Origin: Candidatus Omnitrophota bacterium
GTDB lineage: Bacteria; Omnitrophota; Gorgyraeia; Duberdicusellales; 4484-171
Reading direction: 5' to 3'
Assembly: GCA_016935525.1 (NCBI GenBank)
Contig: JAFGQU010000013.1
Location: 90,523-154,522, forward strand
Length of the DNA stretch: 64,000 nt
The first letter of the stretch is position 1. Every line of letters starts with the position of its first letter. This document shows, piece by piece, positions 5,231 to 55,753 of the stretch. Both the position numbers and the translations under genes were made by a program. The notes beneath the pieces are model-generated. The model was not told where the DNA came from, ran no database searches, and worked only from the letters and a program-made list of their open reading frames with translations.

Positions 5231-5238
5231 AACCAAAG

Positions 5239-5331
5239 TCACAAGGTCACATAGTCACATGTCACACGTTGAAACCAGATTCAGGGGGAAATATTCTTTT
5301 ACGTGTGACTATGTGTCGTGTGACGTGTGAC
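5239..5331. repeat. GTCACA-array inverted repeat (long imperfect hairpin) between rodA and the radical SAM gene
   Basis: Left arm: gtcacaaggtcacatagtcacatgtcacacgt. Right arm: acgtgtgactatgtgtcgtgtgacgtgtgac. Arms are about 30 nt with a loop of about 30 nt. Confidence 0.8.
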
Positions 5332-7327: not shown

Positions 7328-7690
7328 TCAACGGATAAGATAACGAGCGGTCATTTTTTTCGCTTTAAAGAATTTACGGGTGAATTCCTTGGCGAGTTCC
7401 TTATTGTATTTCTTGCAGGAAAAGATATTGATGTATGCCGACCGCCAGAGGTCTGAGAAATGGCCGGTGATAGATGAGGTTTCGATCAGCTGGACTAACG
7501 AATAACCTGCGGTGACCGGGTTCTTTTCGCCGAAGTAAGGTAATAGAGTCTTGCCGTACTTCTTCATTTTGATCTTTTTGCATAACAGGTCGACATATTT
7601 CTGTAATTGTTTTTTCGAGGTGATGATGCTCTTGTCGCATTCAAAAAGATTCAATACCAGTTCGTACCCAAAAGGAGCTCGTTTCTTCAT
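7328..7690 (-). CDS. speH: S-adenosylmethionine decarboxylase proenzyme, pyruvoyl-dependent (class 1, SpeH/SpeD-like)
   Basis: 120 aa. The pattern YELVLNLFECD ... LVQLIETSSITGHF ... AYINIFSCKK matches AdoMetDC: GxELxxCD, the ES/SH self-cleavage site, and the FSCG-like C-terminal region. The gene is on the minus strand. Confidence 0.65.
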   Translation of the reverse strand: MKKRAPFGYELVLNLFECDKSIITSKKQLQKYVDLLCKKIKMKKYGKTLLPYFGEKNPVTAGYSLVQLIETSSITGHFSDLWRSAYINIFSCKKYNKELAKEFTRKFFKAKKMTARYLIR

Positions 7691-11786: not shown

Positions 11787-11946
11787 GTCACATAGTCACA
11801 ATGTATAGGTCGCATAGACACATAGTCACAAGGTCACACGTGAAGGAAACAGGGGTTTTTCATGTGACATGTGACGTGCAACGTGTGACAAAACTGCTGT
11901 GCAGATTTTCGTGTGACGTGTGTCGTGTGACGTGTGTCGTGTGACC
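11787..11946. repeat. GTCACA / TGTGAC degenerate repeat arrays arranged as an inverted repeat
   Basis: The left part reads gtcacatagtcaca ... gtcacaaggtcacacgtg. The right part reads catgtgacatgtgacgtg ... cgtgtgacgtgtgtcgtgtgacgtgtgtcgtgtgacc. It is the same family as 5239-5331. Confidence 0.8.
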
Positions 11947-14397: not shown

Positions 14398-15501
14398 ATG
14401 AAGTTAAAAACACCCTATTATTTGATTGACGAGAAAAAACTGTTAAAAAACCTTAAGATCATCAAATATATCCGTGATTACTGCGGGGCAAAGTCAGTTC
14501 TGGCCCTCAAATGTTTCTCAACTTGGGGTGTTTTTAAACTGATGAAGAAATATATGGATGGGACTACAGCCAGTTCACCGTATGAGGCCCGTTTAGGATA
14601 TGAGAAATTCGGCAAGGAAGTTCATGCCTATTCAGTCGGCTACTCAAAGGAGGACATAAAGGAAGTCGGCAAGATCGCCGACACGGTTATTTTTAACTCG
14701 GTATCGCAGTTAAAAACTTTTTATTCTTCTGTCCGTACCTGTAAGGTGGGGCTACGAATAAATCCTCGAGTAAGTTATTCCCACTTTGATCTTGCTGATC
14801 CGGCCCGGAGATATTCACGATTAGGGGTGGTAGATAAAAACTCTCTTTCAAAAGTGATGCATTTGATCAGCGGGGTCATGTTTCACTTTAACTGTGAGAA
14901 CGATGATCTCAAAACATTTTCCAAACATCTGGATTACATCACTGAACAATATGAGAGTATTCTTAAACGGTTAGAATGGGTAAGCCTTGGCGGAGGGCTC
15001 TATTTTACGAAAGCAGACTATCCGGTCAAAAAGTTCTGCAGGAAATTGAAAGAATTCAGCGATCGATTTAAACTGCAAATCTATTTAGAGCCGGGGGAAA
15101 GTGCGATTACTCAGTCAGCCGAGCTGGTAACGACGGTGCTTGATATTGTTAAGAATCAGATCGATATCGCTATTGTCGACGCTTCAACTGAGGCCCATAT
15201 GCTTGATCTTTTGATCTATCGTAGCCAGGCGAAAATAAGAGAGGCAGGAGGCGGTAAATACCGATATATGATCGCCGGGAGGTCCTGTTTAGCCGGTGAT
15301 ATTTTCGGGACATATCGGTTTCCCTCGAAGTTAAAAACAGGCAGTATTATCAGGTTTTCCGATGCTGCGGGATATACGATGGTAAAGAAAAATTGGTTTA
15401 ACGGTTTAAAAATGCCGGCAATTGTGGTAAAAAGATTGAATGGAAAGATTGATGTGGTCCGTAAGTTCGAGTATAAAGATTTCATGACGAATCTATCTTA
15501 A
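14398..15501 (+). CDS. nspC: carboxynorspermidine/carboxyspermidine decarboxylase
   Basis: 367 aa. The N-terminus TPYYLIDEKKLLKNLKIIKYIRDYCGAKSVLALKCF is characteristic of CANSDC (PLP-dependent, alanine racemase fold). It is paired with a CANSDH gene downstream. Confidence 0.85.
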   Translation: MKLKTPYYLIDEKKLLKNLKIIKYIRDYCGAKSVLALKCFSTWGVFKLMKKYMDGTTASSPYEARLGYEKFGKEVHAYSVGYSKEDIKEVGKIADTVIFNSVSQLKTFYSSVRTCKVGLRINPRVSYSHFDLADPARRYSRLGVVDKNSLSKVMHLISGVMFHFNCENDDLKTFSKHLDYITEQYESILKRLEWVSLGGGLYFTKADYPVKKFCRKLKEFSDRFKLQIYLEPGESAITQSAELVTTVLDIVKNQIDIAIVDASTEAHMLDLLIYRSQAKIREAGGGKYRYMIAGRSCLAGDIFGTYRFPSKLKTGSIIRFSDAAGYTMVKKNWFNGLKMPAIVVKRLNGKIDVVRKFEYKDFMTNLS

Positions 15502-15520
15502 GAAGAAAAGGGGGGTAGCT

Positions 15521-16789
15521 ATGAGAAAAAACGTGTTGATCGTCGGAGCCGGAGGGGTTGCTCATGTGGCTGCCCATAAATGCGTGCAAAACAATGACGT
15601 GCTGGGCGATATCTGTATCGCATCGCGGACGCAAAGTAAATGTGATAAGATCATCGAAAGCGTAAAAAAGAAAAAAAGCCTGAAAGATCCCTCAAAAAAG
15701 ATATATTCCCGTCAGATCAACGCATTGGATATCCCCGCTACGGTAAAGCTTATCCGGGATACCGGTTCACAGATCGTGATCAACCTTGCTCAGGCTTATG
15801 TGAATATGTCGTTACTCGAAGCCTGTATGAAAAGCGGGGCTGCCTATATAGATACCGCGATACATGAAGAACCGCATAAAGTCTGTGAAGATCCGCCTTG
15901 GTACGGTAATTATGAATGGAAACGTAAAGATAAATGTAAAGAAACCGGTACTACCGCTATTTTAGGAGCCGGGTTCGATCCCGGGGTAGTCAACGCCTAC
16001 GCGGCGCTTGCGGTGAAACATCATTTCGATACGATCGATACGATCGATATCCTGGATGTAAACGCCGGTAATCACGGCAGATATTTTTCGACGAATTTCG
16101 ACCCGGAAATAAATTTCCGCGAATTCAAAAAAGTATGGACCTGGATCGACCGCAGATGGGTGATGGAGAAAGTCCATTCGATAAAGATGATCTATGATTT
16201 CCCGGTCGTCGGTGAACAACCGGTCTATTTGAACGGCCATGACGAACTCCATTCGTTATCGAAAAATATCGACGCCAATACTATCCGGTTCTGGATGGGG
16301 TTCAGCGATCATTATATCAATGTGTTCACGGTCCTGACTAAACTTGGGCTGACTTCAGAAAAACCGGTCCGGACCGCCGAAGGAGTCGAAGTCGTACCGT
16401 TAAAGGTATTGAAAGCGATCCTGCCCGATCCCTTATCGCTTGCGCCTGACTATACCGGAAAGACCTGTATCGGAGATTACGTGCGCGGCGAGAAGAACGG
16501 AGAAAAAAGGGAGATATTTATTTATAATACCTGCGATCACGCGGAGTGTTATAAAAAAGTAGAGTCCCAGGCAATCTGTTATACTGCCGGAGTACCGCCG
16601 GTTGCCGCCGCGATGCTTATTGCCAAAGATATCTGGGACGTAAGGACGATGGTGAATGTCGAAGAACTCGATCCCGATCCTTTTATCGAGTTGCTTGATA
16701 AAATAGGGTTACCAACTCAAATCGATGAAAGTCCGAAACCTCTACCGTCACAGGTAGCCGATCATCTGAAAGGGGTGGAATCAATATAA
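15521..16789 (+). CDS. carboxynorspermidine synthase/dehydrogenase (saccharopine dehydrogenase family)
   Basis: 422 aa with an N-terminal Rossmann motif VLIVGAGGVAHVAA. It has the length and layout of CANSDH and is a neighbour of nspC. Confidence 0.8.
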   Translation: MRKNVLIVGAGGVAHVAAHKCVQNNDVLGDICIASRTQSKCDKIIESVKKKKSLKDPSKKIYSRQINALDIPATVKLIRDTGSQIVINLAQAYVNMSLLEACMKSGAAYIDTAIHEEPHKVCEDPPWYGNYEWKRKDKCKETGTTAILGAGFDPGVVNAYAALAVKHHFDTIDTIDILDVNAGNHGRYFSTNFDPEINFREFKKVWTWIDRRWVMEKVHSIKMIYDFPVVGEQPVYLNGHDELHSLSKNIDANTIRFWMGFSDHYINVFTVLTKLGLTSEKPVRTAEGVEVVPLKVLKAILPDPLSLAPDYTGKTCIGDYVRGEKNGEKREIFIYNTCDHAECYKKVESQAICYTAGVPPVAAAMLIAKDIWDVRTMVNVEELDPDPFIELLDKIGLPTQIDESPKPLPSQVADHLKGVESI

Positions 16790-16791
16790 AA

Positions 16792-16823
16792 GTCACACGA
16801 CACAAAGTCACATAGTCACACGT
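16792..16823. repeat. GTCACA degenerate tandem repeat
   Basis: agtcacacgacacaaagtcacatagtcacacgt lies immediately 3' of the CANSDH stop. Confidence 0.75.
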
Positions 16824-16880
16824 TGTCTCGAAAGATATTAGAGATGATCACTGTGTATAATCTTCAATCAAATTCAGAAT

Positions 16881-16946
16881 AATCACCGTAATCGATGCCG
16901 CAGGCGTAATCACTGTAATCAGGGGCTATTGTACCCCGCAATAGCT
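16881..16946. repeat. AATCACCGTAATC-type repeats plus a hairpin
   Basis: aatcaccgtaatc ... gtaatcactgtaatc is the reverse orientation of the GATT-N5-GATT motif at 14348. The hairpin gctattgtaccccgcaatagc follows. Confidence 0.65.
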
Positions 16947-17095
16947 TCAAATGTGTAAAATTTTCCGAATCTGTAAAATATCCTGACACTTTTTGTGCCT
17001 GTTCTCATATCTGAAAGAATAGGTTTAAGAAATTTTTCCCTCAAAAACCTAAGTTTTAAAAAGGATATTAAATCCTACAGTTTTGGTAGTAATTT

Positions 17096-17116
17096 TTCCG
17101 GCATAAAAATTGCTTA
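17096..17116 (+). promoter_or_regulatory. candidate sigma54 (-24/-12) promoter
   Basis: The sequence cCGGCATaaaaaTTGCTt gives GG at 17100-17101 and GC at 17112-17113 with exactly 10 nt between them. GGCA and TTGCT match the TGGCAC-N5-TTGCW consensus. It lies about 150 nt upstream of the PEP-CTERM gene. The palindromes AGGATattaaATCCT (about 17063), CTTACAtttgagTGTAAG (17113-17130) and GGAAAATTTTCC (about 17130-17141) are nearby. Confidence 0.45.
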
Positions 17117-17261
17117 CATTTGAGTGTAAGGAAAATTTTCCTCATCATTTTTCCCTGCCCGGGATCGATTTCCGAAGAATAGTCTAAGAGAGATGCCTAA
17201 AGAAAAGAGCAAGGGCTTTTTCTTAACGGTGAGGGTCTATATCCATCAGGAGAGGTGGAAG

Positions 17262-18413
17262 ATGAGAAAAGTAGTATTTGGAGTTCTATTTATTTTATTG
17301 TGTTTGGGCATTAATATTGATGTTTTCGCGTTACCCTCATTTAAGATCACCCAGCTTACGGATAATGCAGGATATTTTGATCATGGCCCCTGGATATCGG
17401 GTGATGATGTGGTATGGAAGAGAAGACAAGGAGAAGAGGGGAGTTATCTCTATGAATTATTTTTTTATGACGGTAGCTCTATAATACAATTGGCAGATGT
17501 TTCTACTCATGATTTTGATGCAAGAACTCTAGAAGGTAAGGTCGTCTGGCGAGATTGGGATAGTACCATGCATGATACTGAAATATTTCTTTATGATGGG
17601 ATTATGACTACTCAGATCACCGATAATTCAAATTTTGATATAGATGTTGATATTTCTGGAGACAAAATAGTATGGGAAGGTATTGTTGCTGGGGAGTCGG
17701 AAATATTTTACTATGATGGCTTAACTATTTCACGATTAACAACTAATAGCGTTGACGATGAGTTTCCGAGAATATCCGGAGATACTATTGTATGGTCTCA
17801 TTATGACGGGAATGATTATGAAGTCATTTTTCGTGAAGGTGCCTCTCAGGTTCAACTAACGAATAACAACTACGATGATGAATACGCAGAAATATCCGGG
17901 GACAATATTGTCTGGCATGGCGATGATGGGAATGATCTTGAGATATTTTTATATGATGGGGCAATTACTACGCAACTGACTGATAACGATTATCTTGATT
18001 ATTGGCCGAAAATAGACGGCAATAATGTGGTCTGGCATGGATTTGACGGAAATGATAACGAAATCTTTTATTATGACGGTTCTATTCTTCAGCAGTTGAC
18101 TGACAACGATTATGATGATTGGTATCCTCAGGTTTTTGGAAACAATATCGTCTGGTACGGGTTTGACGGAAATGATAATGAGATCTTTTTTTACGACGGT
18201 ACCGGTATAGTCCAGGTTACCGATAATATCTATGATGACCGGAGTGCCCGCTTATCAGGTATGAATCTTGTATGGTCGGGCTATGATGGAAACGATTATG
18301 AGATATTCCTGGCCAGTCCGGTCCCGGAACCGGCATCGGTTCTGTTATTAGGAGTAGGGTTCATTGGTTTAGGTGCTCATCGCTATCTACGCCGTTTCTT
18401 CAGGATAGATTAA
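17262..18413 (+). CDS. PEP-CTERM sorting-domain protein with eight ~41-aa tandem repeats (putative beta-propeller)
   Basis: A strong RBS AGGAGAGGTGG precedes ATG 17262, followed by a signal peptide. The unit TQLTDNxYDDxxPxISGxNIVWxGxDGNDxEIFxYDG repeats eight times. The C-terminus is PVPEPASVLLLGVGFIGLGAHRYLRRF, i.e. PEP motif, TM helix and RR, the exosortase sorting signal. Confidence 0.8.
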   Translation: MRKVVFGVLFILLCLGINIDVFALPSFKITQLTDNAGYFDHGPWISGDDVVWKRRQGEEGSYLYELFFYDGSSIIQLADVSTHDFDARTLEGKVVWRDWDSTMHDTEIFLYDGIMTTQITDNSNFDIDVDISGDKIVWEGIVAGESEIFYYDGLTISRLTTNSVDDEFPRISGDTIVWSHYDGNDYEVIFREGASQVQLTNNNYDDEYAEISGDNIVWHGDDGNDLEIFLYDGAITTQLTDNDYLDYWPKIDGNNVVWHGFDGNDNEIFYYDGSILQQLTDNDYDDWYPQVFGNNIVWYGFDGNDNEIFFYDGTGIVQVTDNIYDDRSARLSGMNLVWSGYDGNDYEIFLASPVPEPASVLLLGVGFIGLGAHRYLRRFFRID

Positions 18414-18437
18414 TAGCAGTTACCCCGTTCACGCGTT

Positions 18438-18456
18438 GCTTCACCGGAGGTGAAGC
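18438..18456 (+). terminator. stem-loop GCTTCACC-gga-GGTGAAGC followed by CCCGTT/AACGGG repeat hairpins
   Basis: Perfect 8-bp stem located 25 nt after the PEP-CTERM stop. There is no adjacent U-tract, although a T5 run lies about 20 nt downstream. Further cccgttc / aacggg inverted repeats extend to about 18530. Confidence 0.4.
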
Positions 18457-18540
18457 TTCCCGTTCACCCGTTCTTTTTAACGGGCATAACGGGGGGAACG
18501 GGCTAACGGGTTAACCGGACTATTCTTACCGCTATTTTAT

Positions 18541-18566
18541 GTGTGACCTTGTGACTTTGTGACCTT
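18541..18566. repeat. TGTGAC tandem repeat (reverse orientation of the GTCACA family)
   Basis: gtgtgaccttgtgactttgtgacc. Confidence 0.75.
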
Positions 18567-18570
18567 CATA

Positions 18571-18613
18571 TCTGCGATCATCTGGGGTTTTTCCTTCTGT
18601 GATCATCTGCGTG
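18571..18613. repeat. TGTGATCATCTG-type repeat pair
   Basis: tctgcgatcatctg ... ctgtgatcatctgcgtg. The same motif recurs at 21844-21882. Confidence 0.65.
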
Positions 18614-18619
18614 AAAGTA

Positions 18620-18648
18620 TTGACAAGCCGGGGATATGTCCTATAATA
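18620..18648 (+). promoter_or_regulatory. sigma70 promoter (TTGACA-17nt-TATAAT) of the regulator/PAPS operon
   Basis: Consensus TTGACA at 18620-18625 and consensus TATAAT at 18643-18648 with a 17-nt spacer. The MarR-like gene ATG is at 18656. Confidence 0.7.
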
Positions 18649-18655
18649 TTGTTCA

Positions 18656-19069
18656 ATGTTTGAACAATCTCCGGATAAAAAGAACAATGGTGCTGCCGAA
18701 TTAGAACGGGAAGAGATACTCAATCTCCTCTCCGAACTCCATAAAACCCCGGACATCACCCAACGGGAGATGTCTTTGCGGCTGGATGTCTCCTTGGGGA
18801 AAGTCAATTATCTTCTTAACGCCCTTATTAAAAGGGGACTTTTAAGTATCAAAAATTTCTCGAAAAACGAAGGTAAAGTAAAACTCAAACGGGTCAAATA
18901 TAACCTTACGAAAAAAGGGTTTCAGGAGAAACTCAAACTTACCTACCACTTTCTCAAGAAAAAAGAAAAAGAATTCAACCGGTTATGTGAAGAATGGGAA
19001 GACCTGAAAAATCTTTCCGAAACCCTGCAGAAAGCCGGGATCGAGTTGGAAGGGGGGAGCAAACGATGA
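18656..19069 (+). CDS. small winged-helix transcriptional regulator, MarR-like (EPS-associated type)
   Basis: 137 aa. The central region [30 protein letters not shown] reads as HTH then wing. The size and layout resemble the MarR-family regulators that accompany PEP-CTERM/EPS loci. Its stop overlaps the start of sat/cysC. Confidence 0.55.
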
Positions 19070-22769: not shown

Positions 22770-22853
22770 ATAGGCTTCAACCACGGAGAACACAGAGGGT
22801 GCTGAGGTAAGATGAGAAGAGTTACTTTAAAAGTTTTAAATCTATTTGGTTTC

Positions 22854-22966
22854 GCGCTTTCAAGAACCATGAAAGCGCCGTCCTTCGTGAAAACCGCCGA
22901 AGCCGAAAAATCATATTTTTCGGTTCGATTCGGTTTTCATGAAGATGCCCCATCGAGTAACGATGG
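22854..22966 (+). other. structured intergenic leader with three consecutive perfect stem-loops (possible cis-regulatory RNA or small RNA)
   Basis: Hairpin 1 is GCGCTTTCA-agaacca-TGAAAGCGC at 22854-22878. Hairpin 2 is CCGAAAAAT-cat-ATTTTTCGG at 22903-22923. Hairpin 3 is CCATCG-agtaa-CGATGG at 22950-22966. The 65-aa ORF 22812-23009 that covers them has no recognisable protein features. Confidence 0.35.
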
Positions 22967-23092
22967 AGGAAACCAAATATTCTCGTATCCTCTCTGTGGA
23001 ACTCTGTGAGCTCTGTGTTTAAATTTTTTTTGGGTAAACAGATTTTTGCATTATGCAAGGATGTCAGGAATTGTAAAATAGTATAGTGAATG

Positions 23093-29055: not shown

Positions 29056-29850
29056 ATGATTTCTCAAAAGACGATTGAATATGGATTGCGCAAGGCAGGG
29101 TTGAAAAAAGGGGATACTGTTTTGGTCCACAGTTCATTGCGTAGCCTCGGGCCATTAGAAGGTGTCGATCCCGATGACCGTAATGGGTTTGTAAGCACGG
29201 TGTTTGCCGCGTTCTCCCGGATTTTAGGGTTACCTCGGCAGGGGACTTTAGTTGTGCCGACATTTACTCACGAGTACGCCCGTAATAATATCCCGTTTAT
29301 GTATGAAAAGAGCCCTTCGGAAGTGGGTTTATTCACCGAATACGTTCGTAAACAGAAAGGGGCGTACCGGTCGATGCATCCAATAAATTCGTTTTGTGCG
29401 ATCGGAAAGAAAAAACACGATATCTGTAAAGACGTGAGCATTTCCTGTTACGGATATAATTCTGTTTTTGATCGTCTTTATCAATTAGATGCAAAAATGA
29501 TGTTTTTCGGTTGCGGTATGTATCATATGACGTTGAAACATCATCTGGAGCAGATGGTGGCTTTACCTTATGTCTACACGAAAGCATATTTCACTCCGGT
29601 ATATAAGAATAACAAACCGGTAAAACTACCTTTTCTTGCGGTAGTACGGTATTTGAACGGGAGAGTCAACAACAACGATTGCCGGCAGTTTGAGCGTCAT
29701 CTAAAAAAGAAGAGAATGCTTACGAGTGTAGAAATCAGTAAAACGAAAATACTTCTTATGCGTATCCGTGACGCGTATGATCAAGGATATGAACTATTGC
29801 AGAAGAATCCCTGTTATTTTTTAAAAAAACCTTACTACACGACAAAATGA
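29056..29850 (+). CDS. AAC(3)-fold N-acetyltransferase-like protein
   Basis: LKKGDTVLVHSSLRSLGPLEG resembles the N-terminal motif of aminoglycoside 3-N-acetyltransferase-family proteins. In this locus it is a candidate amino-sugar N-acyltransferase. Confidence 0.55.
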   Translation: MISQKTIEYGLRKAGLKKGDTVLVHSSLRSLGPLEGVDPDDRNGFVSTVFAAFSRILGLPRQGTLVVPTFTHEYARNNIPFMYEKSPSEVGLFTEYVRKQKGAYRSMHPINSFCAIGKKKHDICKDVSISCYGYNSVFDRLYQLDAKMMFFGCGMYHMTLKHHLEQMVALPYVYTKAYFTPVYKNNKPVKLPFLAVVRYLNGRVNNNDCRQFERHLKKKRMLTSVEISKTKILLMRIRDAYDQGYELLQKNPCYFLKKPYYTTK

Positions 29851-30932
29851 AAAGCATTTTCATAACTGGGATGTTTCGTTCCGGGACGACACTATTAGCC
29901 AGAATGTTGGACGTGCATCCGGATGTCTCTGCCGTGTATCAGGTGATCACACCTTTTTTTCGGATGTGGCGGAATATTTTCCTTGGTGAATATGATTGTG
30001 AGAGGCTACTCCAGCTGCCGATGGGGAGTAATGTGTTATTCGATTTGGGATTATATGAAAAGTTCATCCAAGAAGCCTGGCGCGTTCGATTCGACGAAAA
30101 ACACATCTTACAGTTAAAAGAAGATCTATCGTGTGAATTGTATCGTGATGCTCATGAGAAACCGCTTTTAAAAAAAGGATTATTCGCTACGCTCACTCCC
30201 GGTGGTACGGTAGAAGATGTATTGATACAGCTTATCCGCTGTGTATATCCCGATATCGATGCACAAAAATATGTTGGGTTTAAAGAGATATGGTGTGAAG
30301 AGTTTATCCCGGTTTTACTTAAACTGTCTGAAGTCAAGTTTAATGCCATACAGATAATCCGTGATCCGAGAGGTGTATTTGCGTCACGCAATACCGGTAA
30401 TTATCTTAAAGAATGCGGCGGTAAACGGTATCCCTTATTGTTTATCGCCGAGACGTGGAATAGAAGTGCCGATATATTATTTCGTTGTAAGGATTTGGAC
30501 GGTTTCTTTCCAGTCCGTTACGAAGATATTGTTTCTTTTCCCAAAGAAACAATACAAAAGATCTGTGCATTTCTCGACATAGATTTTTATGATGATATGG
30601 CCAACCCGGAGAATTTTACCGATAGTAAGGGTAAACAGTGGAGGCCCAATACTACAGGAGACGATACTCGGCCCCGGTTTTTAAACAGTCAGACGAACTA
30701 TTGGAAAACCGCTTTAAATGATGAGGAAATCGGCAGTATCGAGTTTTTATGCGGCGAATCTATGGATACCCTGGGATACCAAAGAAAATTTACCCGTGAA
30801 CAGGCCCATCAATTATTCCTTCGATATCAAGAAGAAACTGATGAGATACATCCCTGGCTTGTCCCTTTGGGGTATGTATGTACAGCGGCCCGTAAAGAAA
30901 AAGAACTGGCAAAATTGGAACGTATTTCATGA
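29847..30932 (+). CDS. sulfotransferase-family protein
   Basis: The N-terminal 5'-PSB loop is IFITGMFRSGTTLLARML. A central RDPRG region gives a 3'-PB-like motif. Confidence 0.8.
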   Translation: MKSIFITGMFRSGTTLLARMLDVHPDVSAVYQVITPFFRMWRNIFLGEYDCERLLQLPMGSNVLFDLGLYEKFIQEAWRVRFDEKHILQLKEDLSCELYRDAHEKPLLKKGLFATLTPGGTVEDVLIQLIRCVYPDIDAQKYVGFKEIWCEEFIPVLLKLSEVKFNAIQIIRDPRGVFASRNTGNYLKECGGKRYPLLFIAETWNRSADILFRCKDLDGFFPVRYEDIVSFPKETIQKICAFLDIDFYDDMANPENFTDSKGKQWRPNTTGDDTRPRFLNSQTNYWKTALNDEEIGSIEFLCGESMDTLGYQRKFTREQAHQLFLRYQEETDEIHPWLVPLGYVCTAARKEKELAKLERIS

Positions 30933-41162: not shown

Positions 41163-41941
41163 GCAATCAAAAAATAATTCCTACAATCAATAGCCAGCAA
41201 TCTATGGAAAATTTCATCCGTGATGATTCTCCTTTACGGGAGATCGTTAAAAGTATCACTACGGAACAGTTACAGGATTTGGGCGCAAGTTTGAAGATAT
41301 TGGAGGTAGGATGTGGAAACCGTACTTTTATTAAACAACTTGTCGAACAGCGACAAAGCCAATGGTTTGGATTAGATCTTAAGAAAAATTCGGCCGCTAC
41401 TCATAAGGGATCTGTCAGTAAGATCCCTTTTCCCGACGGTTTTTTTGACAGGGTAATCGCAAGTCAATCTATAGAGCATTGGTATGAATATGCTACTACA
41501 TTTAATGAGGGGCTACATGAGATCTACCGGGTTTTAAAACGTGATGGGGAGTTTATTCTGAATTATCCTCTGTATCTTCACGGTCATCCGTTTTTTATGT
41601 TGGGAAAAACGGATAGGATCCATGCGTTATTTTCACCCGAAGTTTGGAAAATAGAAGATATCCGGATACATCATCCAGCACAGCCTTTCTATTGTTGGCA
41701 GGGTAGACGTTTGAGATTGTATGACCAATGGTTCATGACCCGACTTGTTAAAAGACAGCATAAGAGTGCGTATATTGAGCAGATTGTCCTCTGTAAGAAT
41801 AAGCAAGATATTCCCCGTCGTAGCAGTATGAGTCATATTTTACGTGGTATCGAAAAATTGGGATACACTGTTTTATATCTCATGAGAGGAGTTACAGAAA
41901 AGGTTGCTCTTTACATAATCAGAACGAAAGGGAACATATGA
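41159..41941 (+). CDS. class I SAM-dependent methyltransferase
   Basis: ILEVGCGNRTF is motif I. ASQSIEHW and LKRDGEFIL are the later motifs. The start overlaps the radical SAM stop as ATGA. Confidence 0.7.
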   Translation: MSNQKIIPTINSQQSMENFIRDDSPLREIVKSITTEQLQDLGASLKILEVGCGNRTFIKQLVEQRQSQWFGLDLKKNSAATHKGSVSKIPFPDGFFDRVIASQSIEHWYEYATTFNEGLHEIYRVLKRDGEFILNYPLYLHGHPFFMLGKTDRIHALFSPEVWKIEDIRIHHPAQPFYCWQGRRLRLYDQWFMTRLVKRQHKSAYIEQIVLCKNKQDIPRRSSMSHILRGIEKLGYTVLYLMRGVTEKVALYIIRTKGNI

Positions 41942-42780
41942 AACGATTTTTTCTCATAGGATTTCAGCGAAGCGGGACTACGCTTCTGGATTATCTTTTA
42001 AACGCTCATCCCGAGGTGGTTTCGATATGTGAGTGGGAGCTGATTCCTATGATTTATTCGGGAAGCTTGCATCGTTTGCATGATACGGATTTTGATTCTT
42101 TCGTGAAAGTAAAGAAAAATCATAATGTCGATGTCGAGGACTATTTACGATTGTTAGATACTTACCGGGCTAAAAAGATATCTACCCATCAGTTTATAGA
42201 GCAGGCTTGTGATTTGTGTGTCCATGACGATAAGATAAAAGTGGTGGGAGCAAAAGAAGCAATCCCTTTGTCCCGAAGGAAATTCCGATTCATGAAAAAA
42301 CTGTATAGAGATTTTGGGAAATGTACTGATATTGTTTTTATTGAAAGAGATATCAAGGGAATAGTGAATTCTTACATGAAACTTGGTTTTTTACCGGTAG
42401 GGAACAGGAAAATAAGTGAGAAAAATATCAAATCTTTTGTAAAACATTATGTCAAATATATGAATCATATCGATAAAATCCTTTCTCTGTTTCCGCGGAC
42501 GATATATGTGCGGTACCGGGATTTGATGGATGTTCCTCAGAACACTTTGAAGATGATTTTTGAATTTTTAGGAGTTGCTTCAGATGACAGCACTCTCGAT
42601 GCAATCATTAAGACTCCGTGTCGTACCAGCCGGGTCAATTTCGAAGGGATTGTCTCTGAACGTAAAGAAGGTTGGCGTGTGCGCCTGTCTTCGGATATGG
42701 CCGGGTTTATAGATGTTTACTACAAAAAAAATCGCAAGTTTTTTTGTGAAAAAACACAGGATGTATATGCCGCTACCTGA
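41938..42780 (+). CDS. sulfotransferase-family protein
   Basis: FFLIGFQRSGTTLLDYLLNAHP is the 5'-PSB P-loop-like motif. Confidence 0.8.
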   Translation: MKRFFLIGFQRSGTTLLDYLLNAHPEVVSICEWELIPMIYSGSLHRLHDTDFDSFVKVKKNHNVDVEDYLRLLDTYRAKKISTHQFIEQACDLCVHDDKIKVVGAKEAIPLSRRKFRFMKKLYRDFGKCTDIVFIERDIKGIVNSYMKLGFLPVGNRKISEKNIKSFVKHYVKYMNHIDKILSLFPRTIYVRYRDLMDVPQNTLKMIFEFLGVASDDSTLDAIIKTPCRTSRVNFEGIVSERKEGWRVRLSSDMAGFIDVYYKKNRKFFCEKTQDVYAAT

Positions 42781-50291: not shown

Positions 50292-51268
50292 GAATTTGCC
50301 TTTACTACCGCACAATCGATAAACCATGGGGAGGAGCTAACTCTTTTATCGTCAACCTCCGTAATTTCTTTATGAAGAATGATGTCGAAATAACGACGGA
50401 TATAAATTCCCAATATGATGTCCTTTTCCTTAACGGAGCTTATAAGGCGCCGGGAAAGATGTTTGATCTTTCATCCATACGGGCGATAAAACGTTATGGA
50501 TACGCTTCTTTCATAAAACGGATATTTGGTCAAAAAAGAAAAGTGAAAATAGTATATCGGTTGGATGGTTTACGGAAAATATATGCCGGTGTGAACAGTA
50601 AAATGGATACGATCCAGCTTCAGTGTCTGCCGTATGCCGATCATATCATTTTCCAGAGTAAATTCGCTCATCAGATTTTTTCTGATGCAGGATATAACGG
50701 GAATAATTTTTCTGTTATTCATAATGGGGTTAATACGAATATGTTCAATATAGCCGGGCGTGACTTTTGGGATGGAAAATATCCTTTAAAGATCGTTGCC
50801 TGTTCCTGGTCGGCAAATCCGGCAAAAGGCCATGCGATAATAGCCCGCTATGCGGATGTGGAGGGAGTAGAAGTCCATTATGTAGGCAAATGGCCGCAAA
50901 ATATCTCATCAGGCAAGGTTATTTGCCACGGCCCATTACCACAGAGAGAAATAGCGGAAATATTTAAACAATCTCATGTATTTCTTTTTCCGGCACTTCA
51001 AGAGGCTTGTTCGAACACTCTGTTGGAGGCATTAGCGTGCGGGTTACCGGTGCTTTATATCGATAGCGGCAGTAACCGGGAAATTGCCGGAGAGTACGGG
51101 ATAGAACTAAGAGAAGAATCTTTTGAAAGATCTATTACCTATATGCGGGAGCAATACGGTCTGTTGCGAGCTAGAATAGAGAATGAAAATAAAAAGTTTT
51201 CTATAGGATGTGTGGGGGAAAAATATCTTGAAATATGCCAAAAGTTATGCCATGGATCTGATAGCTGA
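50288..51268 (+). CDS. glycosyltransferase family 4 (GT-B)
   Basis: FPALQEACSNTLLEALACGLPVLY (EX7E motif). Confidence 0.7.
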   Translation: MRICLYYRTIDKPWGGANSFIVNLRNFFMKNDVEITTDINSQYDVLFLNGAYKAPGKMFDLSSIRAIKRYGYASFIKRIFGQKRKVKIVYRLDGLRKIYAGVNSKMDTIQLQCLPYADHIIFQSKFAHQIFSDAGYNGNNFSVIHNGVNTNMFNIAGRDFWDGKYPLKIVACSWSANPAKGHAIIARYADVEGVEVHYVGKWPQNISSGKVICHGPLPQREIAEIFKQSHVFLFPALQEACSNTLLEALACGLPVLYIDSGSNREIAGEYGIELREESFERSITYMREQYGLLRARIENENKKFSIGCVGEKYLEICQKLCHGSDS

Positions 51269-52346
51269 AACCAAACAAAGTTCGCTTTTGTTTCTTGATA
51301 AGGTTTATCAGGGAGATGGTTTCTTTGCTTATTCTTTAGAGTACGACCGTTATTCAAAGGATTCTAACTGGTGGGGATTGGCTAATACGGTTTTTGCCGT
51401 CAAGACTTATCATATTCTGCGTTCTTTAACCAGTTTGGATGAACAGCGAAAAAAGGATATTGTTGATTTCATGCAATCTTTCCATCGAGGGGGAGGAGTA
51501 TATAGCGACAAATTGGTGTGTAGAGAGACAAGGCTCTACAATAAACTTGCTGCAATAAAACATTTTAATTTTTCTAATTTTTTCGGCCAAAAAACGGTTA
51601 TAGCTGAAACCAGACAGGCCGTAGCAGCCTTGTTTATTAGTGGTTCGCGGCCTGTAGAAATGTTCGATGACATACCCTATACCGTAAGAGATGTCGATAA
51701 GTATTTTAATAGTCTTAATTGGCGCAATATATGGGGGGCGGCTAGTCATGTCGGGCATCTGGTCTTTTTTTATAAAATGAATGCTGATTTATTTGGACAT
51801 AATAAAGGACTTAATCAGGAATTGATTGCTTATTGTTTGCATAAATTGACGATATTACAGAATCCTAAAGATGGGCTGTGGTATAAGCAGGAGGTTTCAG
51901 CTAAACAGAAAATTAACGCTGCGATGAAAATAATATCTGCTTTCAATATCGCTGACAAAAAAGATATCCCTTACGCTGAAAAGATTATAGATTTTATGCT
52001 TTCTCTGAAAGATGATTACTACCGCAATGGAGATGGGTGTGATAATTTAAATTCTATGTTCGTAATGAAATATGCTCTCGATAGCGCCGGGCCTAATTAT
52101 AAAGAGAATAATGTGCATGATTTCTGTTGGAACGCTCTCGATCGGTATAAAACCTATGCTTATCCGGAAGAAGGAGGTTTTACTTTTTTGCGCAATGCCG
52201 GGCCTCGTAAATGGTATGGTATGGAAATTACAAAAAAATTTAGTGGTCCGGATATCCAGGGGACTTTTATGTTTACGTGGGCAATATCTCTTGCTGCCTT
52301 TTTATTGAAAATTAACTGGGAAGAATTTCAGGAAATAATAAATTAA
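51252..52346 (+). CDS. hypothetical alpha/alpha-toroid-like protein (prenyltransferase/terpene-cyclase-type repeats)
   Basis: Recurrent motifs GGGVYSD, QNPKDGLWY and EEGGFTF resemble the QxxDGGW/GGF repeats of PFTB/SQHop-cyclase-like toroids. No catalytic assignment is possible. Confidence 0.3.
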   Translation: MDLIAETKQSSLLFLDKVYQGDGFFAYSLEYDRYSKDSNWWGLANTVFAVKTYHILRSLTSLDEQRKKDIVDFMQSFHRGGGVYSDKLVCRETRLYNKLAAIKHFNFSNFFGQKTVIAETRQAVAALFISGSRPVEMFDDIPYTVRDVDKYFNSLNWRNIWGAASHVGHLVFFYKMNADLFGHNKGLNQELIAYCLHKLTILQNPKDGLWYKQEVSAKQKINAAMKIISAFNIADKKDIPYAEKIIDFMLSLKDDYYRNGDGCDNLNSMFVMKYALDSAGPNYKENNVHDFCWNALDRYKTYAYPEEGGFTFLRNAGPRKWYGMEITKKFSGPDIQGTFMFTWAISLAAFLLKINWEEFQEIIN

Positions 52347-53509: not shown

Positions 53510-55753
53510 ATGAAGAGGGTATTACGCGCCATACTTATTATATTCATAATCGGGATAGCCGCTTTTTTTATCTCTTTTCCGATATTTAGTAAGGTCTCAC
53601 CGTTAAAACATCCTAAATCAGCTTTAAAAGATTATATGCGTAATATCCAGAGAGAATGGGATTACATGATGTTTTTGTGTTTTCCAAAGCCGCAGTCGAC
53701 ACTATCTGTTTCTCCTGCAATGTTGCCGATAAAAATTCCATTAGATATCTTAGGTGAATATCCTTCATCAAACGCCGTATCGGGATTTTTCCTTTTTTCA
53801 CCGGGCCGGGTTTTTGATTATAATATTTTCTCTCTGTATTCAGAACCTTTGGGTATTCCGGTGGATGTGCAGCATAAGATAATGTCTCGGTGGCCGGATG
53901 GGTCCGCGAAATGTGTCCATGTGGTCGCTGTCGCTGACGCGGATCTTTTAAAGAGTGGGGATTTATATTTGATCGTGGATAAACAAAGAAAAGATTCTAC
54001 GATTACACGGTCTCAGGAGGTTCCATCTGTTTTCCACCGGCAGACTTTCATCAAAAATATCCGGGTAAATATGGGGGTAGAAGGTAAACGTTTTACTCAA
54101 ACAACATCGAATATCGATCGTAATAAGTGGGAGAAAGGACCTGTTCGGTGGCAGACTTATGATCATAGGCGGAGTAAGTATATTGAAGCACTCTTTTTAC
54201 AGAAATATTTTGCGGATTTACCCCAAAAGACGATTCAGTTAACGGCAAAATATACATATCCGCAAGAAAAAGATGTGGTGGATTTTGATTTTCTGGAATG
54301 GCAGATCAGTTTCGATAAGACGTTAAATAACTGGCGTGTCGTTGATCCCGATCGGGGAATTTTTTCTGTTTTTTTTGATGGGGAAGAAGTCTATGTGTAT
54401 CTACCCTGGTTTTCGGAGATCTTCCGTTGGATCCATATAGGTGTCCAGGGGAATGTATTGTCTATAAGATTTTCTCCGAATAAAGATGGACCCATGTATA
54501 TTCATTTAGGATCCGGTAATACGATAAATGTCCATTTATTTGCGGTAGATAAAAATAAGGGAGAGAATGTCTTAAGCAAATTGATTTCCCCTGACGAATA
54601 TGTCTCTCTTGTGCCCAAAGATGTAGAAGCTGAAGGCTTATGGTATTACTATTCTCCGGAAAATATCCCGGAATCATCTTTGCGAAAATTAGAAGAGATA
54701 ATCGGTTTTTATAGAAACCATTTCCGTATTGCTCCAACTGATTATAATCATCCCCGGTTAGATTCAGAACCGCCTCCGGCCGTACATAGTCTATTTTTCC
54801 GCCGGGGAGCTTTGGCGAATCGGGGAGGAGAGTCGCTATATACACGGGGAGGAGATAAGCTTTCAAGAGATTATCGTCAGGGAGATCTCTCATATTATCT
54901 GCTTCTTTATTATTACCATTGTAAGGATATCCTTGCCAAAGAGGTTGCTCTGGATTACGCTCGTTATGTATGTGATAACGGAATAATGTCCCATAATAAA
55001 GGGTATTGGAATGGCAGTATGCGGTATTATACTGCGCACGATTACAGTGAATCGGTATATAATCGTTTTTCGGGTATTCTTGCTGCCTATTATACGACCA
55101 ATAGTTATTATTTTTATCTTATGAGTAAAAGAGTCGCCGATGCCGGATATTTCCGTTTAACTGCCAATGGCGAGCTCCTTTCGGTTGACCAGAGCGGTGC
55201 CGTGAGTGATATCACGTTAAGCCGGACTCCGTATCTTGCCTATGATTATATCCTCGCGTTTCAGACTTTCGGAGACGCTCGCTACCTTTATACAGCAGAA
55301 AAACTTATGGATTTTCTCCGTTATTCGCAGAATCCCGGTATTCCCTATTGGTATATGTCATGGAATTGGCGGCAAAAACAATGGGCTCCGGTTTCTTCTC
55401 GAAATAACCCGGGTGATAGTTTTCGTAATTTCTATGCGTATGCGTTTAGCGGTATTTATCTGGCTTTAATGGAATATGACGGGGGGTTGCCTGAGAAAAA
55501 TATCCCTTATTTAGAACAAATGCTCCGTGTCGAACATCGGTATTTCCCGGAACACATCATGTATGATCCCCGTTGGGGATTGATGTATTTACTTTATTCT
55601 CATGGGATGGGAGATGAGGAATATTTTCAGGCAACTAAAGATGCTCTGGAGGAATTTGAGAAAGATGTCTGGCCGGTCCTTTCCAACCAGCGTATGAAAG
55701 AAAACCTGCTTTTTATTCCTTTGACCTACCGATCGATGTCAGATTTCAATTGA
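53510..55753 (+). CDS. large membrane-anchored hypothetical protein (747 aa), possible polysaccharide-processing enzyme
   Basis: A single N-terminal TM helix, then about 700 aa rich in Tyr/Trp with no motif I recognise. It is the largest ORF of the island. Confidence 0.3.
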   Translation: MKRVLRAILIIFIIGIAAFFISFPIFSKVSPLKHPKSALKDYMRNIQREWDYMMFLCFPKPQSTLSVSPAMLPIKIPLDILGEYPSSNAVSGFFLFSPGRVFDYNIFSLYSEPLGIPVDVQHKIMSRWPDGSAKCVHVVAVADADLLKSGDLYLIVDKQRKDSTITRSQEVPSVFHRQTFIKNIRVNMGVEGKRFTQTTSNIDRNKWEKGPVRWQTYDHRRSKYIEALFLQKYFADLPQKTIQLTAKYTYPQEKDVVDFDFLEWQISFDKTLNNWRVVDPDRGIFSVFFDGEEVYVYLPWFSEIFRWIHIGVQGNVLSIRFSPNKDGPMYIHLGSGNTINVHLFAVDKNKGENVLSKLISPDEYVSLVPKDVEAEGLWYYYSPENIPESSLRKLEEIIGFYRNHFRIAPTDYNHPRLDSEPPPAVHSLFFRRGALANRGGESLYTRGGDKLSRDYRQGDLSYYLLLYYYHCKDILAKEVALDYARYVCDNGIMSHNKGYWNGSMRYYTAHDYSESVYNRFSGILAAYYTTNSYYFYLMSKRVADAGYFRLTANGELLSVDQSGAVSDITLSRTPYLAYDYILAFQTFGDARYLYTAEKLMDFLRYSQNPGIPYWYMSWNWRQKQWAPVSSRNNPGDSFRNFYAYAFSGIYLALMEYDGGLPEKNIPYLEQMLRVEHRYFPEHIMYDPRWGLMYLLYSHGMGDEEYFQATKDALEEFEKDVWPVLSNQRMKENLLFIPLTYRSMSDFN

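Follow-up and report, generated by a model that had tools for sequence, protein, structure and literature searches.

A putative sigma54-controlled gene for a predicted exosortase-sorted beta-propeller protein in Candidatus Omnitrophota

Described PEP-CTERM systems and the present locus

The PEP-CTERM/exosortase (EpsH) system was described by Haft et al. (2006) together with a proteobacterial cis-regulatory region and PrsK/PrsR/PrsT (PMC1569441). The PEP-CTERM cis-regulatory motifs were found in Proteobacteria only; motif 1 is 17 nt long, ends in TTTACA and lies 32–92 nt upstream of the sigma54 motif, and exosortase genes often lie apart from the genes of their substrates (PMC1569441). In Aquincola tertiaricarbonis the pepA gene has a mapped TGGCAC/CTGCTT sigma54 promoter and its RpoN dependence has been shown experimentally; PEP-CTERM proteins are also needed for flocs in Zoogloea (PMC9850573).

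The window analysed here is the whole stretch of 64,000 nt from a Candidatus Omnitrophota bacterium, and it holds one gene that resembles these systems. Like the proteobacterial genes, it forms an operon by itself, has a long stretch of non-coding DNA upstream and lies next to a large EPS locus, and its −24 GG/−12 GC motif is followed by a leader in the range of tens to ∼200 nt (PMC1569441). A conserved upstream block carries TGTAAA (TTTACA on the other strand) twice, a possible likeness to the proteobacterial region in the TTTACA core. The phylum differs, being Omnitrophota, and so does the geometry: the block is 111–146 nt from the sigma54 motif, whereas motif 1 lies at 63 ± 11 nt (maximum 92), and the TTTACA core has the opposite orientation, reading TGTAAA(A) on the plus strand and TTTACA on the minus strand. 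Aquincola pepA shares with the present gene the PEP-CTERM signal, the sigma54-type promoter and an own terminator; PepA, unlike the present protein, has ∼250 residues and is not a propeller, and its spacer is only ∼85 nt (PMC9850573). The function of PepA is tied to the retention of exopolysaccharide on the cell (PMC9850573), and the present gene may have a like function.

We consider that the locus is probably a single-gene unit encoding a secreted, exosortase-sorted eight-bladed propeller under sigma54 control. The unit structure is seen in the 472-nt spacer upstream, the terminator of its own and a downstream gene that has its own sigma70 promoter; the features are collected in Table 1.

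Table 1. Features of the propeller gene and its surroundings, in window coordinates
Feature	Position	Strand	Evidence or remark
Candidate bEBP/UAS site CAAATGTGTAAAATTTTCCGAATCTGTAAAATATCC	16948..16983	+	33/36 nt identical in L002
Palindrome AGGATattaaATCCT	17062..17076	.	From the first-pass annotation; not kept in L002
Sigma54-type promoter cGGCATaaaaaTTGCT	17099..17114	+	GG 17100-01 (−24), GC 17112-13 (−12)
Promoter-proximal/early-transcribed block	17113..17141	+	CTTACA-N6-TGTAAG (17113-30) overlapping perfect palindrome GGAAAATTTTCC (17130-41)
5' leader elements TTCCCTGCCCGGGAT, TTTCCGAAGAA	17151..17179	+	Kept in L002 although the leader of that locus has a 66-nt insertion
Leader hairpin AAAGAAAAGAGC..GCTTTTTCTT	17198..17226	+	Hairpin at the same place in L002
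Shine–Dalgarno sequence GGAGAGG	17249..17255	+	6 nt before ATG; L002 counterpart GGAGGAAGG
Coding sequence, 383 aa + stop	17262..18413	+	ORF, TIGR04275 and PF07589 matches, AF2 model, PDB fold matches, homologs
Predicted Sec signal peptide	aa 1-23, nt 17262-17330	+	...DVFA|LP
Predicted eight-bladed beta-propeller	aa ~27-352, nt 17340-18317	+	AF2, TIGR04275
PEP-CTERM sorting domain	aa 353-383, nt 18318-18410; VPEP at 18321-32	+	PF07589
Terminator-like hairpin GGTGAAGCTTCCCGTTCACC then CGTTCTTTTT	18449..18478	+	Terminator scan
Sigma70 promoter TTGACA-16-TATAAT	18620-47	+	12/12 matches in promoter scan; kept in L002
MarR-family EPS-associated regulator gene	18656-19069	+	TIGR04176, 97.5 bits vs 88

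One true syntenic ortholog locus, L002, was found, and the promoter and UAS footprinting uses this single ortholog locus. The genes flanking the propeller gene are 68–89% identical between L002 and the window, the propeller protein is 49% identical, and 238 of the 594 columns of the intergenic alignment are identical. Among 80 genome loci around CANSDH the PEP-CTERM gene is kept in L002 only. A further 80 metagenome loci with propeller relatives gave no additional syntenic ortholog, most of them being from GC-rich taxa and without the motif. Close homologs of the MarR-family gene lie on contigs of <1.5 kb, and one at 68% identity (L165/L166) has no PEP-CTERM gene beside it. As a speculative reading, the propeller gene might be a mobile cassette with GTCACA/TGTGAC arrays at its ends.

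The propeller protein and its sorting signals

The likely start codon is ATG 17262 rather than ATG 17193; it follows a Shine–Dalgarno sequence and begins a signal peptide that is conserved in the ortholog. The longer reading frame from ATG 17193 was rejected: its N-terminal extension is out of frame and not conserved in L002. The predicted signal peptide, MRKVVFGVLFILLCLGINIDVFA|LP, is kept in L002 and coincides with a helix at residues 2–20 of the AF2 model.

The repeat model TIGR04275 (beta_prop_Msarc) matches the protein with 113 bits against a cut-off of 85, in five matched stretches. We counted eight repeats of 40–44 residues each, in agreement with the eight tandem units of ∼41 residues given in the first-pass annotation; their conserved Trp residues are at positions 52, 96, 138, 178, 218, 258, 298 and 338, giving Trp-to-Trp spacings of 44, 42 and then 40 five times, and the DNA of the repeat region has a 120-nt periodicity. 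TRF reported no tandem repeat in the coding repeats, because the copies are too diverged. The W-x-G-x-DGND-x-EIF-x-YDG core had been called invariant and is a consensus: DGND is present in five of the eight repeats (repeats 4–8 only), EIF is replaced by ELF in repeat 1 and by EVIF in repeat 4, and YDG is absent from repeats 4 and 8.

The AF2 model (pLDDT 93.9, pTM 0.88) has 32 strands arranged as 8 × 4, which bears out the earlier suggestion of an eight-bladed propeller. Searching solved structures with Foldseek returned TolB, tricorn, trilobed-protease and acylaminoacyl-peptidase propellers (E ∼1e-12 to 1e-10), and eight-bladed matches to Fbw7 and the designed Tako8/Ika8 (TMq 0.55–0.61). The protein shares with the first group (PD40-type propellers) four-stranded blades and a similar strand pattern; those propellers differ in having 6–7 blades, in being only 12–15% identical and in being joined to peptidase or TolB N-terminal domains, whereas the present propeller is eight-bladed and stands alone, with no catalytic domain. 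A non-catalytic, TolB/tricorn-like propeller is predicted with high confidence. Homologs at E ≤ 0.001 number 585, many of them named PEP-CTERM or beta-propeller repeat proteins, and those of like architecture carry the PEP-CTERM protein annotation. Among these relatives, the TIGR04275 propellers of Planctomycetota/Phycisphaerae (e.g. P0032, P0087 and P0114) have the same ∼40-residue repeat, ITQLTDN...P.ISG.NVVW.G.DG.D.EIF.YDG, and the same layout of 360–400 residues with a signal peptide and PEP-CTERM; they differ in being 30–48% identical, in belonging to GC-rich genomes and in having no upstream sigma54 motif in most of the loci fetched.

In the C-terminus, VPEPASVLLLGVGFIGLGAHRYLRRFFRID, a PEP motif is followed by a hydrophobic helix and then by a basic cluster. 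It reads VPEP-ASVLLLGVGFIGLGA-HRYLRRFFRID directly before the stop codon, with an AF2 helix at residues 357–380, and PF07589 scores 26.1 bits (cut-off 20.7); the sorting signal of VPEP, transmembrane helix and RR that had been noted from the sequence is supported. TIGR02595 falls just below its cut-off (15.8 vs 16), and the VPLPA-CTERM profile scores 23 against 25.35. A search of all six frames of the window for PEP-CTERM-like tails found the tail of this protein only. No part of this fast-evolving propeller protein is conserved better than the tail: LASPVPEPAS.LLLGVG is identical in L002 in spite of the 49% identity of the protein as a whole, which argues for selection on the sorting signal itself.

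Promoter, upstream block and leader

The sequence GGCATaaaaaTTGCT at 17100–14 has the exact GG-N10-GC spacing and lies 149 nt before the ATG. The motif, cGGCAT-N5-TTGCT at 17099–17114, is the sole match of its kind in the 64-kb window. Significance attaches to its position and conservation, not to the motif by itself. The pattern GGCAY-N5-TTGCW has one match where 0.26 would be expected in a window, and at least one is present in 23% of shuffles. With a weighted score it is again the only match in the window, and 0.79 matches per window are expected by chance. The chance of such a match on the plus strand of the 472-nt spacer is ∼0.003 (0.79 × 472/128000). As about one such match per window is expected by chance, the evidence for the promoter is comparative. 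In L002 the corresponding sequence is TGGCATAAAAATTGCT, identical at 15 of 16 nt, and sits within a 46-nt block (17095–17140 in the window) conserved between the two loci in a spacer that has otherwise diverged. The motif occurs independently in L163, which holds a third PEP-CTERM propeller gene (42% identical); the upstream sequence there is TGGCATAATAATTGCT, with TGGCAT-N5-TTGCT as in L002. GGCAT and TTGCT are thus found at the canonical spacing in three loci, and the sigma54-type promoter placed ∼150 nt upstream in the first-pass annotation is supported. In two further loci (L103 and L155) a strong sigma54 motif precedes a gene for a related propeller; they are uninformative, since they are near-identical to each other. 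The usual spacing from the −12 element predicts a transcription start at ∼17123–17127.

The spacer has a second conserved block, 16948–16983, one of only three at ≥13/15 identity between the intergenic regions of the window and L002. It contains two 15-mers with TGTAAAAT (16954–68 and 16972–86), 18 nt apart and about 130–146 nt upstream of the −24 GG. When the window is compared with L002, the gap between this candidate UAS and the −24 element changes by 5 nt, which is half a helical turn. L163 has a similar pair of 15-mers 100–120 nt upstream of its sigma54 motif, one upstream copy reading ...TTTTTACA on the plus strand ∼86 nt upstream of that motif; this likeness is not significant on its own, its score being reached in 415 of 5000 shuffles and in 94 of 2001 control windows, and it serves as a lead only. 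The block falls outside the coordinates covered by the first-pass annotation.

Three palindromes had been put forward as bEBP or IHF sites, and this proposal is not supported. The window has 30 perfect 12-mer palindromes, and between 14 and 45% of the shuffles of the intergenic region yield at least one of each of the three types, so that they occur at chance frequency; inverted repeats of the AGGATattaaATCCT type are present in 45% of the shuffles, and this palindrome is probably due to chance. AGGAT..ATCCT is not kept in L002, and the IHF consensus WATCAANNNNTTR is absent between the UAS and the promoter in the window, L002 and L163. Two of the palindromes are downstream of the −24 element (about −12 to +17), which is not the usual place for enhancer sites. 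The block at 16948–16983 is the better candidate for an activator site. The block at 17113–17141, which in L002 has CTTATA-N7-TGTAAG and GGAAAATTTTCT, is a possible operator of a second regulator.

The conserved 46-nt block might instead be the operator of a conventional factor (e.g. a dimer on AAAATTTTCC/GGAAAATTTTCC), with transcription starting from a weak or atypical sigma70-family promoter. We think this rather unlikely, although several observations speak for it. AAAATTTTCC occurs three times in the window, always in this spacer (16957, about −168; 17130/17132 on the two strands, about +6 to +17), and the copies are kept in L002; the AAAATTTTCC/GGAAAATTTTCC site recurs in the upstream block, and the GG-N10-GC match, taken by itself, is no more than chance would give in a window. 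An extended −10 (TGTTATAAT) lies just upstream of the sigma54 motif in L163, and in another AT-rich organism (L164) two PEP-CTERM propeller genes are preceded by sigma70-like promoters and lack a sigma54 motif. The operator reading is countered by the fact that precisely GGCAT and TTGCT, canonically spaced, are retained in the three loci, by L163 keeping both without the downstream AAAATTTTCC palindrome, and by the promoter scan, which found no sigma70-like promoter or hexamer pair on the plus strand of the spacer upstream of the propeller gene. The two readings are also compatible, as an operator could overlap a sigma54 promoter. It is far less probable that the spacer blocks belong to a structured leader RNA or small RNA (a riboswitch or attenuator) acting as the main regulator. 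The leader is ∼137 nt long, and its segments at 17151–79 and its hairpin are present in both orthologs, the L002 hairpin having a perfect 12-bp stem (AAGAAAAAGAAC/GTTCTTTTTCTT); but Rfam gave no riboswitch or leader family, either in the window at gathering thresholds or in the spacer at E ≤ 1, and the folding is not significantly more stable than that of shuffles (z = −1.4 and −1.6). The L002 leader also tolerates a 66-nt repeat insertion, the L163 leader is only ∼36 nt long, and two sequences allow no covariation test.

For the protein, the alternative is that VPEP-helix-RR is a plain membrane anchor, or that the sorting system has been lost, leaving a periplasmic propeller tethered to the inner membrane; this we hold to be quite improbable. 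Omnitrophota genomes are small and often reduced (PMC10066038), no exosortase was found in the ∼73 kb examined and TIGR02595 is marginally under its threshold, all of which would suit a plain anchor. The PF07589 score and the identity of the tail in L002, where it is the best-conserved part of the protein, argue the other way, as does the common separation of exosortase genes from their substrates (PMC1569441).

Genomic context and possible role

The MarR-family gene downstream, which has the same name at NCBI (MBN2483439.1) and is followed by EPS genes, is the first gene of a sulfated-EPS cluster. The cluster has sulfation genes (sat/cysC, a second APS kinase, a CysQ-like phosphatase and two sulfotransferases) and polymer genes (glycosyltransferases, Wzy, an ABC exporter and a priming transferase). 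In the ∼73 kb comprising the window, 7 kb downstream and 2 kb upstream, no gene was found for an exosortase, rpoN, an enhancer-binding protein, PrsK, PrsR or PrsT, which fits the earlier expectation that exosortase and regulator lie elsewhere; the dependence on rpoN and an exosortase is thus inferred. Each of the polytopic membrane ORFs in the window has an assignment (MreD, RodA, Lgt, ABC exporter, Wzy_C, priming transferase and VanZ). Scanning the window and all of the fetched loci for the RpoN box, GAFTGA and ESELFGH turned up neither an RpoN box nor a genuine enhancer-binding ATPase; the one sequence resembling GAFTGA (GSFTGA, L011) belongs to an unrelated spermidine-synthase-like membrane protein.

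In the sigma54 mechanism that we propose, an NtrC/PrsR-like enhancer-binding protein would bind the conserved block at 16948–83 and contact RNA polymerase–sigma54 at GG 17100 and GC 17112, opening the promoter, as motif, position and conservation suggest. Transcription would start near 17125, run through the ∼137-nt leader and end at the hairpin at 18449–78. The pre-protein would be exported by Sec, cleaved after Ala23 and folded into the TolB/tricorn-like propeller. Judging from the family, the PEP-CTERM helix would keep the propeller in the inner membrane until an exosortase encoded elsewhere cuts it, and the exosortase would then hand it on to the cell surface or polysaccharide layer. That the propeller gene heads a sulfated-polysaccharide cluster of >45 kb suggests, by analogy, a role like that of PepA of floc-forming Betaproteobacteria, in which the propeller may bind or retain a sulfated polymer at the cell surface.

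Bacteria of the Omnitrophota are ultra-small, and some are predatory or host-attached. It is conceivable, if doubtful, that they have a sigma54/enhancer regulon of their own, with a TGTAAAAnTTTTCGA-like site related to and distinct from the proteobacterial PrsR box, that switches on a rapidly diversifying exosortase-sorted surface propeller together with a sulfated capsule, the propeller serving as the adhesin, or setting the specificity, when the cell attaches to host or prey cells; this would account for the 49% identity of the propeller compared with 68–89% in the neighbouring genes.

The design is already known from Proteobacteria; what is new is the phylum, and a search of the literature for exosortase/PEP-CTERM and sigma54 systems in Omnitrophota found nothing. 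There is no new mechanism, so the value lies mainly in annotation and in the prediction of regulons in Omnitrophota. If confirmed, the locus would extend the PEP-CTERM design (single gene, long spacer, enhancer site and sigma54 promoter) to a phylum with no prior report, and its promoter, with two short conserved stretches of DNA, would give a testable handle on the control of a surface protein linked to sulfated polysaccharide in an uncultured ultra-small bacterium.

The propeller protein and its divergence

The gene was read from the ORF list with an ATG at 17193, a start that was rejected because the equivalent ATG is not in frame in L002 (CAZABB010000016.1), the only syntenic ortholog locus. 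The conserved start is the ATG at 17262: it follows a GGAGAGG, a signal peptide of typical type (MRKVVFGVLFILLCLGINIDVFA/LP) begins there and the two propeller proteins are alignable from Met1. At its C-terminus the 383-residue product carries VPEP, a hydrophobic helix and RR, the PEP-CTERM tail seen in the ORF by the first-pass annotation; it scores 26.1 bits against PF07589 (cut-off 20.7) and falls just below the cut-off for TIGR02595 (15.8 versus 16). In all six frames of the window, no second ORF with a PEP-CTERM-like tail was found. Eight repeats of 40-44 residues separate the signal peptide from the tail; their anchoring Trp residues are at 52, 96, 138, 178, 218, 258, 298 and 338, and they match NCBIfam TIGR04275 with 113 bits (cut-off 85). 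The number of repeats is as annotated, but their W-x-G-x-DGND-x-EIF-x-YDG core is not invariant: DGND is limited to repeats 4-8, and repeats 1, 4 and 8 have degenerate versions of EIF and YDG.

The AlphaFold2 model (50 homologs; mean pLDDT 93.9, pTM 0.88) has 32 strands in an 8 × 4 pattern with a terminal helix on either side. Foldseek against the PDB returned TolB, trilobed-protease, acylaminoacyl-peptidase and tricorn propellers (E values of 1e-12 to 1e-10); the eight-bladed matches were Fbw7 (TMq 0.61) and the designed Tako8/Ika8 (0.55-0.57). The model and these matches thus argue for a stand-alone, non-catalytic eight-bladed propeller, the fold that had been proposed, and the protein is very probably a PEP-CTERM eight-bladed propeller. 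Its identity to the L002 protein is 48-49%; all eight neighbouring proteins compared between the same two genomes are 68-89% identical. Between the two, blade cores and PEP-CTERM tail are kept and the loops are variable, suggesting that the surface-exposed propeller evolves fast and is possibly diversifying.

The probable promoter and a candidate activator site

The motif GGCAT-N5-TTGCT fits the GG-N10-GC geometry exactly; no other match occurs in the window, where 0.26-0.79 matches are expected by chance. Taken alone the motif is weak, and the comparative evidence decides. Among 80 genomic loci around the carboxynorspermidine synthase gene (CANSDH), searched for orthologs, only L002 keeps the order lgt-nspC-CANSDH-propeller-MarR_EPS-sat/cysC-...-GMD, MarR_EPS being a MarR-family EPS-associated regulator (TIGR04176). 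The spacers upstream of the two propeller genes are mostly unalignable (238 of 594 columns identical), with three blocks of at least 13/15 identity. One of these, 17095-17140, holds the promoter, and the L002 version, TGGCATAAAAATTGCT, is one step nearer the consensus. A further copy, TGGCATAATAATTGCT, lies 36 nt upstream of the ATG of P0011, a 42% identical PEP-CTERM propeller gene at a third locus (L163) that comes from a different sequencing run and adjoins carbamoyltransferase-type EPS genes. This conservation and recurrence support the sigma54-type promoter first proposed; the + strand of the window spacer yielded no sigma70-like promoter. The pattern is not universal among the propeller relatives: another AT-rich organism (L164) has two tandem PEP-CTERM propeller genes with sigma70-like promoters, and most GC-rich relatives have no sigma54 motif upstream. 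L163 also has an extended -10 element, TGTTATAAT, ~15 nt upstream of its sigma54 motif, and this gene may have two promoters.

Three palindromes annotated as candidate enhancer sites are present, but do not fit that role. The window contains 30 perfect 12-mer palindromes, and each of the listed types occurs in 14-45% of spacer shuffles. L002 does not keep the AGGAT..ATCCT palindrome; the other two are part of the conserved block but, at about -12 to +17, are not classical upstream enhancer sites. Three copies of the 10-mer AAAATTTTCC (1.06 expected) are present in the window, all of them in the spacer: one in the upstream block and one on each strand of the palindrome just after the promoter, two places that L002 also keeps. 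These copies may point to a second DNA-binding protein; looping between the two sites, or a second regulator, is possible.

As an activator site (UAS) the best candidate is 16948-83, which is identical to L002 at 33 of 36 nt and contains two 15-mers with TGTAAAAT, 18 nt apart and 130-146 nt 5' to the -24 element. Two similar 15-mers are found in L163, in inverted orientation and 100-120 nt upstream. A UAS pattern defined post hoc occurs together with a sigma54 match only at the window, L002 and L163 gene loci in 1.75 Mb. Unbiased local alignment of the window block with the L163 spacer was not significant (the score was reached by 415 of 5000 shuffles and 94 of 2001 control windows), and the cross-locus UAS motif is therefore a lead only.

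Coordinates of features (window unless L002, L162 or L163 is named)
Feature	Position
Span in ORF list	17193-18413 (+)
Propeller gene	17262-18413 (+); L002 11742-12893
GGAGAGG	17249-55
Sigma54-type motif	17100-14
Conserved spacer blocks	16948-83, 17095-17140, 17151-65
AAAATTTTCC copies	16957-16966 (upstream block), 17130-17141 (both palindrome strands)
Extended -10 and sigma54 motif	L163 965-1011
Terminator-like hairpin	18449-78
MarR_EPS promoter	18620-18680 (with the inverted repeat after it)
Polysaccharide cluster	18656-64000; L162 11368-18225
Sulfotransferases	29847-30932, 41938-42780
Large proteins lacking matches	51210-52346, 53510-55753
nspC and CANSDH	14398-16789
SpeD-like ORF	7328-7690 (-)
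Repeat arrays, window	5238-5331, 11787-11945, 16791-16820, 16880-16921, 18424-18515, 18542-18563, 18571-18609, 22785-23020
Repeat arrays, L002	11300-11335, 11556-11600, 12900-12985

Gene neighbourhood and intergenic repeats

The gene order is mreBCD-pbp2-rodA ... lgt-nspC-CANSDH, the PEP-CTERM propeller and MarR_EPS. CANSDH is 80-86% identical to versions from Candidatus Omnitrophota MAGs, and the MarR product is NCBI MBN2483439.1, encoded on a 161-kb contig of such a MAG. The propeller gene is a transcription unit of its own, with a 472-nt spacer 5' and a terminator-like hairpin 3', and MarR_EPS has its own perfect sigma70 promoter (TTGACA-16-TATAAT). After this promoter a perfect 9-nt inverted repeat, ATTGTTCAA-tgt-TTGAACAAT, spans the MarR_EPS start codon; both are kept in L002, and the repeat is likely an autoregulatory operator. 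Not far from nspC and CANSDH is a 120-residue ORF that, judged by eye, may encode a small homolog of pyruvoyl-type S-adenosylmethionine decarboxylase (SpeD; motif LIETSSITGHF).

MarR_EPS is followed by a bifunctional sat/cysC, a second APS kinase fused to DUF2061, a CysQ-like phosphatase and GDP-mannose dehydratase, and then by ~40 kb of glycosyltransferases, several radical-SAM/SPASM-like enzymes and many methyltransferases. The cluster also encodes two sulfotransferases, an ABC exporter, two Wzy-like proteins, a carbamoyltransferase and a priming transferase; two large proteins have no Pfam or NCBIfam match. It exceeds 45 kb on a single strand, running into the sequence 3' of the window (L162), and is a sulfated-polysaccharide locus with the propeller gene at its head.

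The intergenic regions carry arrays of 6-9 nt motifs repeated three to six times, usually with an inverted array tens of nucleotides off (GTCACA xN ... TGTGAC xN; CCCGTTCAC / AACGGG; TAATCACyGTAATC; GATCATCTG; CACAGAG / CTCTGTG). Triple 6-mer arrays number 38, against 2.4 in shuffles, and AAGTCACA has six matches against 1.06 expected. The same motif families occur in L002 at other positions and in other orientations, for example as a TAATCAC array inside the 5' leader. The arrays look like fast-turnover hairpin-forming elements, either REP/MITE-like or terminators. GTCACA and TGTGAC arrays elsewhere are adjacent inverted pairs; the halves at 16791-16820 and 18542-18563 form a 21-nt inverted repeat (90% complementary) and stand 1.7 kb apart, enclosing the UAS, promoter, gene and terminator. 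AACGGG arrays bracket the corresponding position in L002 instead. The PEP-CTERM cassette may have been inserted into a GTCACA/TGTGAC element.

The L002 record bears the title 'uncultured Planctomycetia bacterium'. In gene order and protein identities it matches the Omnitrophota window, the next-best matches are Omnitrophota MAGs and the label is probably a misclassification.

Comparison with known PEP-CTERM systems

PEP-CTERM genes mostly form single-gene operons, preceded by upstream regions of > 200 nt (Haft et al., 2006; PMC1569441). In Proteobacteria, the only group in which those authors found the upstream motifs, a 17-nt motif ending in TTTACA, sometimes repeated, is followed by a ~63-nt spacer, a sigma54 motif and a leader of about 71 nt, and the phylogenetic profile of the arrangement matches PrsK, PrsR and PrsT (PMC1569441). 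RpoN dependence and the start site were later shown for an Aquincola PEP-CTERM gene (PMC9850573). The overall design at the window locus is alike, and its upstream block has TGTAAA, the complement of TTTACA; the orientation and distance of the block differ.

Genes for an exosortase, rpoN or an enhancer-binding ATPase were found neither in the window nor in the 7 kb beyond its 3' end and 2 kb beyond its 5' end; we thus infer sigma54 dependence, an activator and exosortase processing from the motif, its conservation and knowledge of the family. The whole model, including sigma54 control, seems to us reasonably likely. The first-pass annotation had observed the locus essentially correctly, save for the start codon, the core and palindromes at chance level, and its interpretation holds in its main lines, the enhancer sites excepted. 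We found no paper joining Omnitrophota with PEP-CTERM, exosortase or sigma54; the locus would represent a known kind of system, now in a new phylum, the Omnitrophota.
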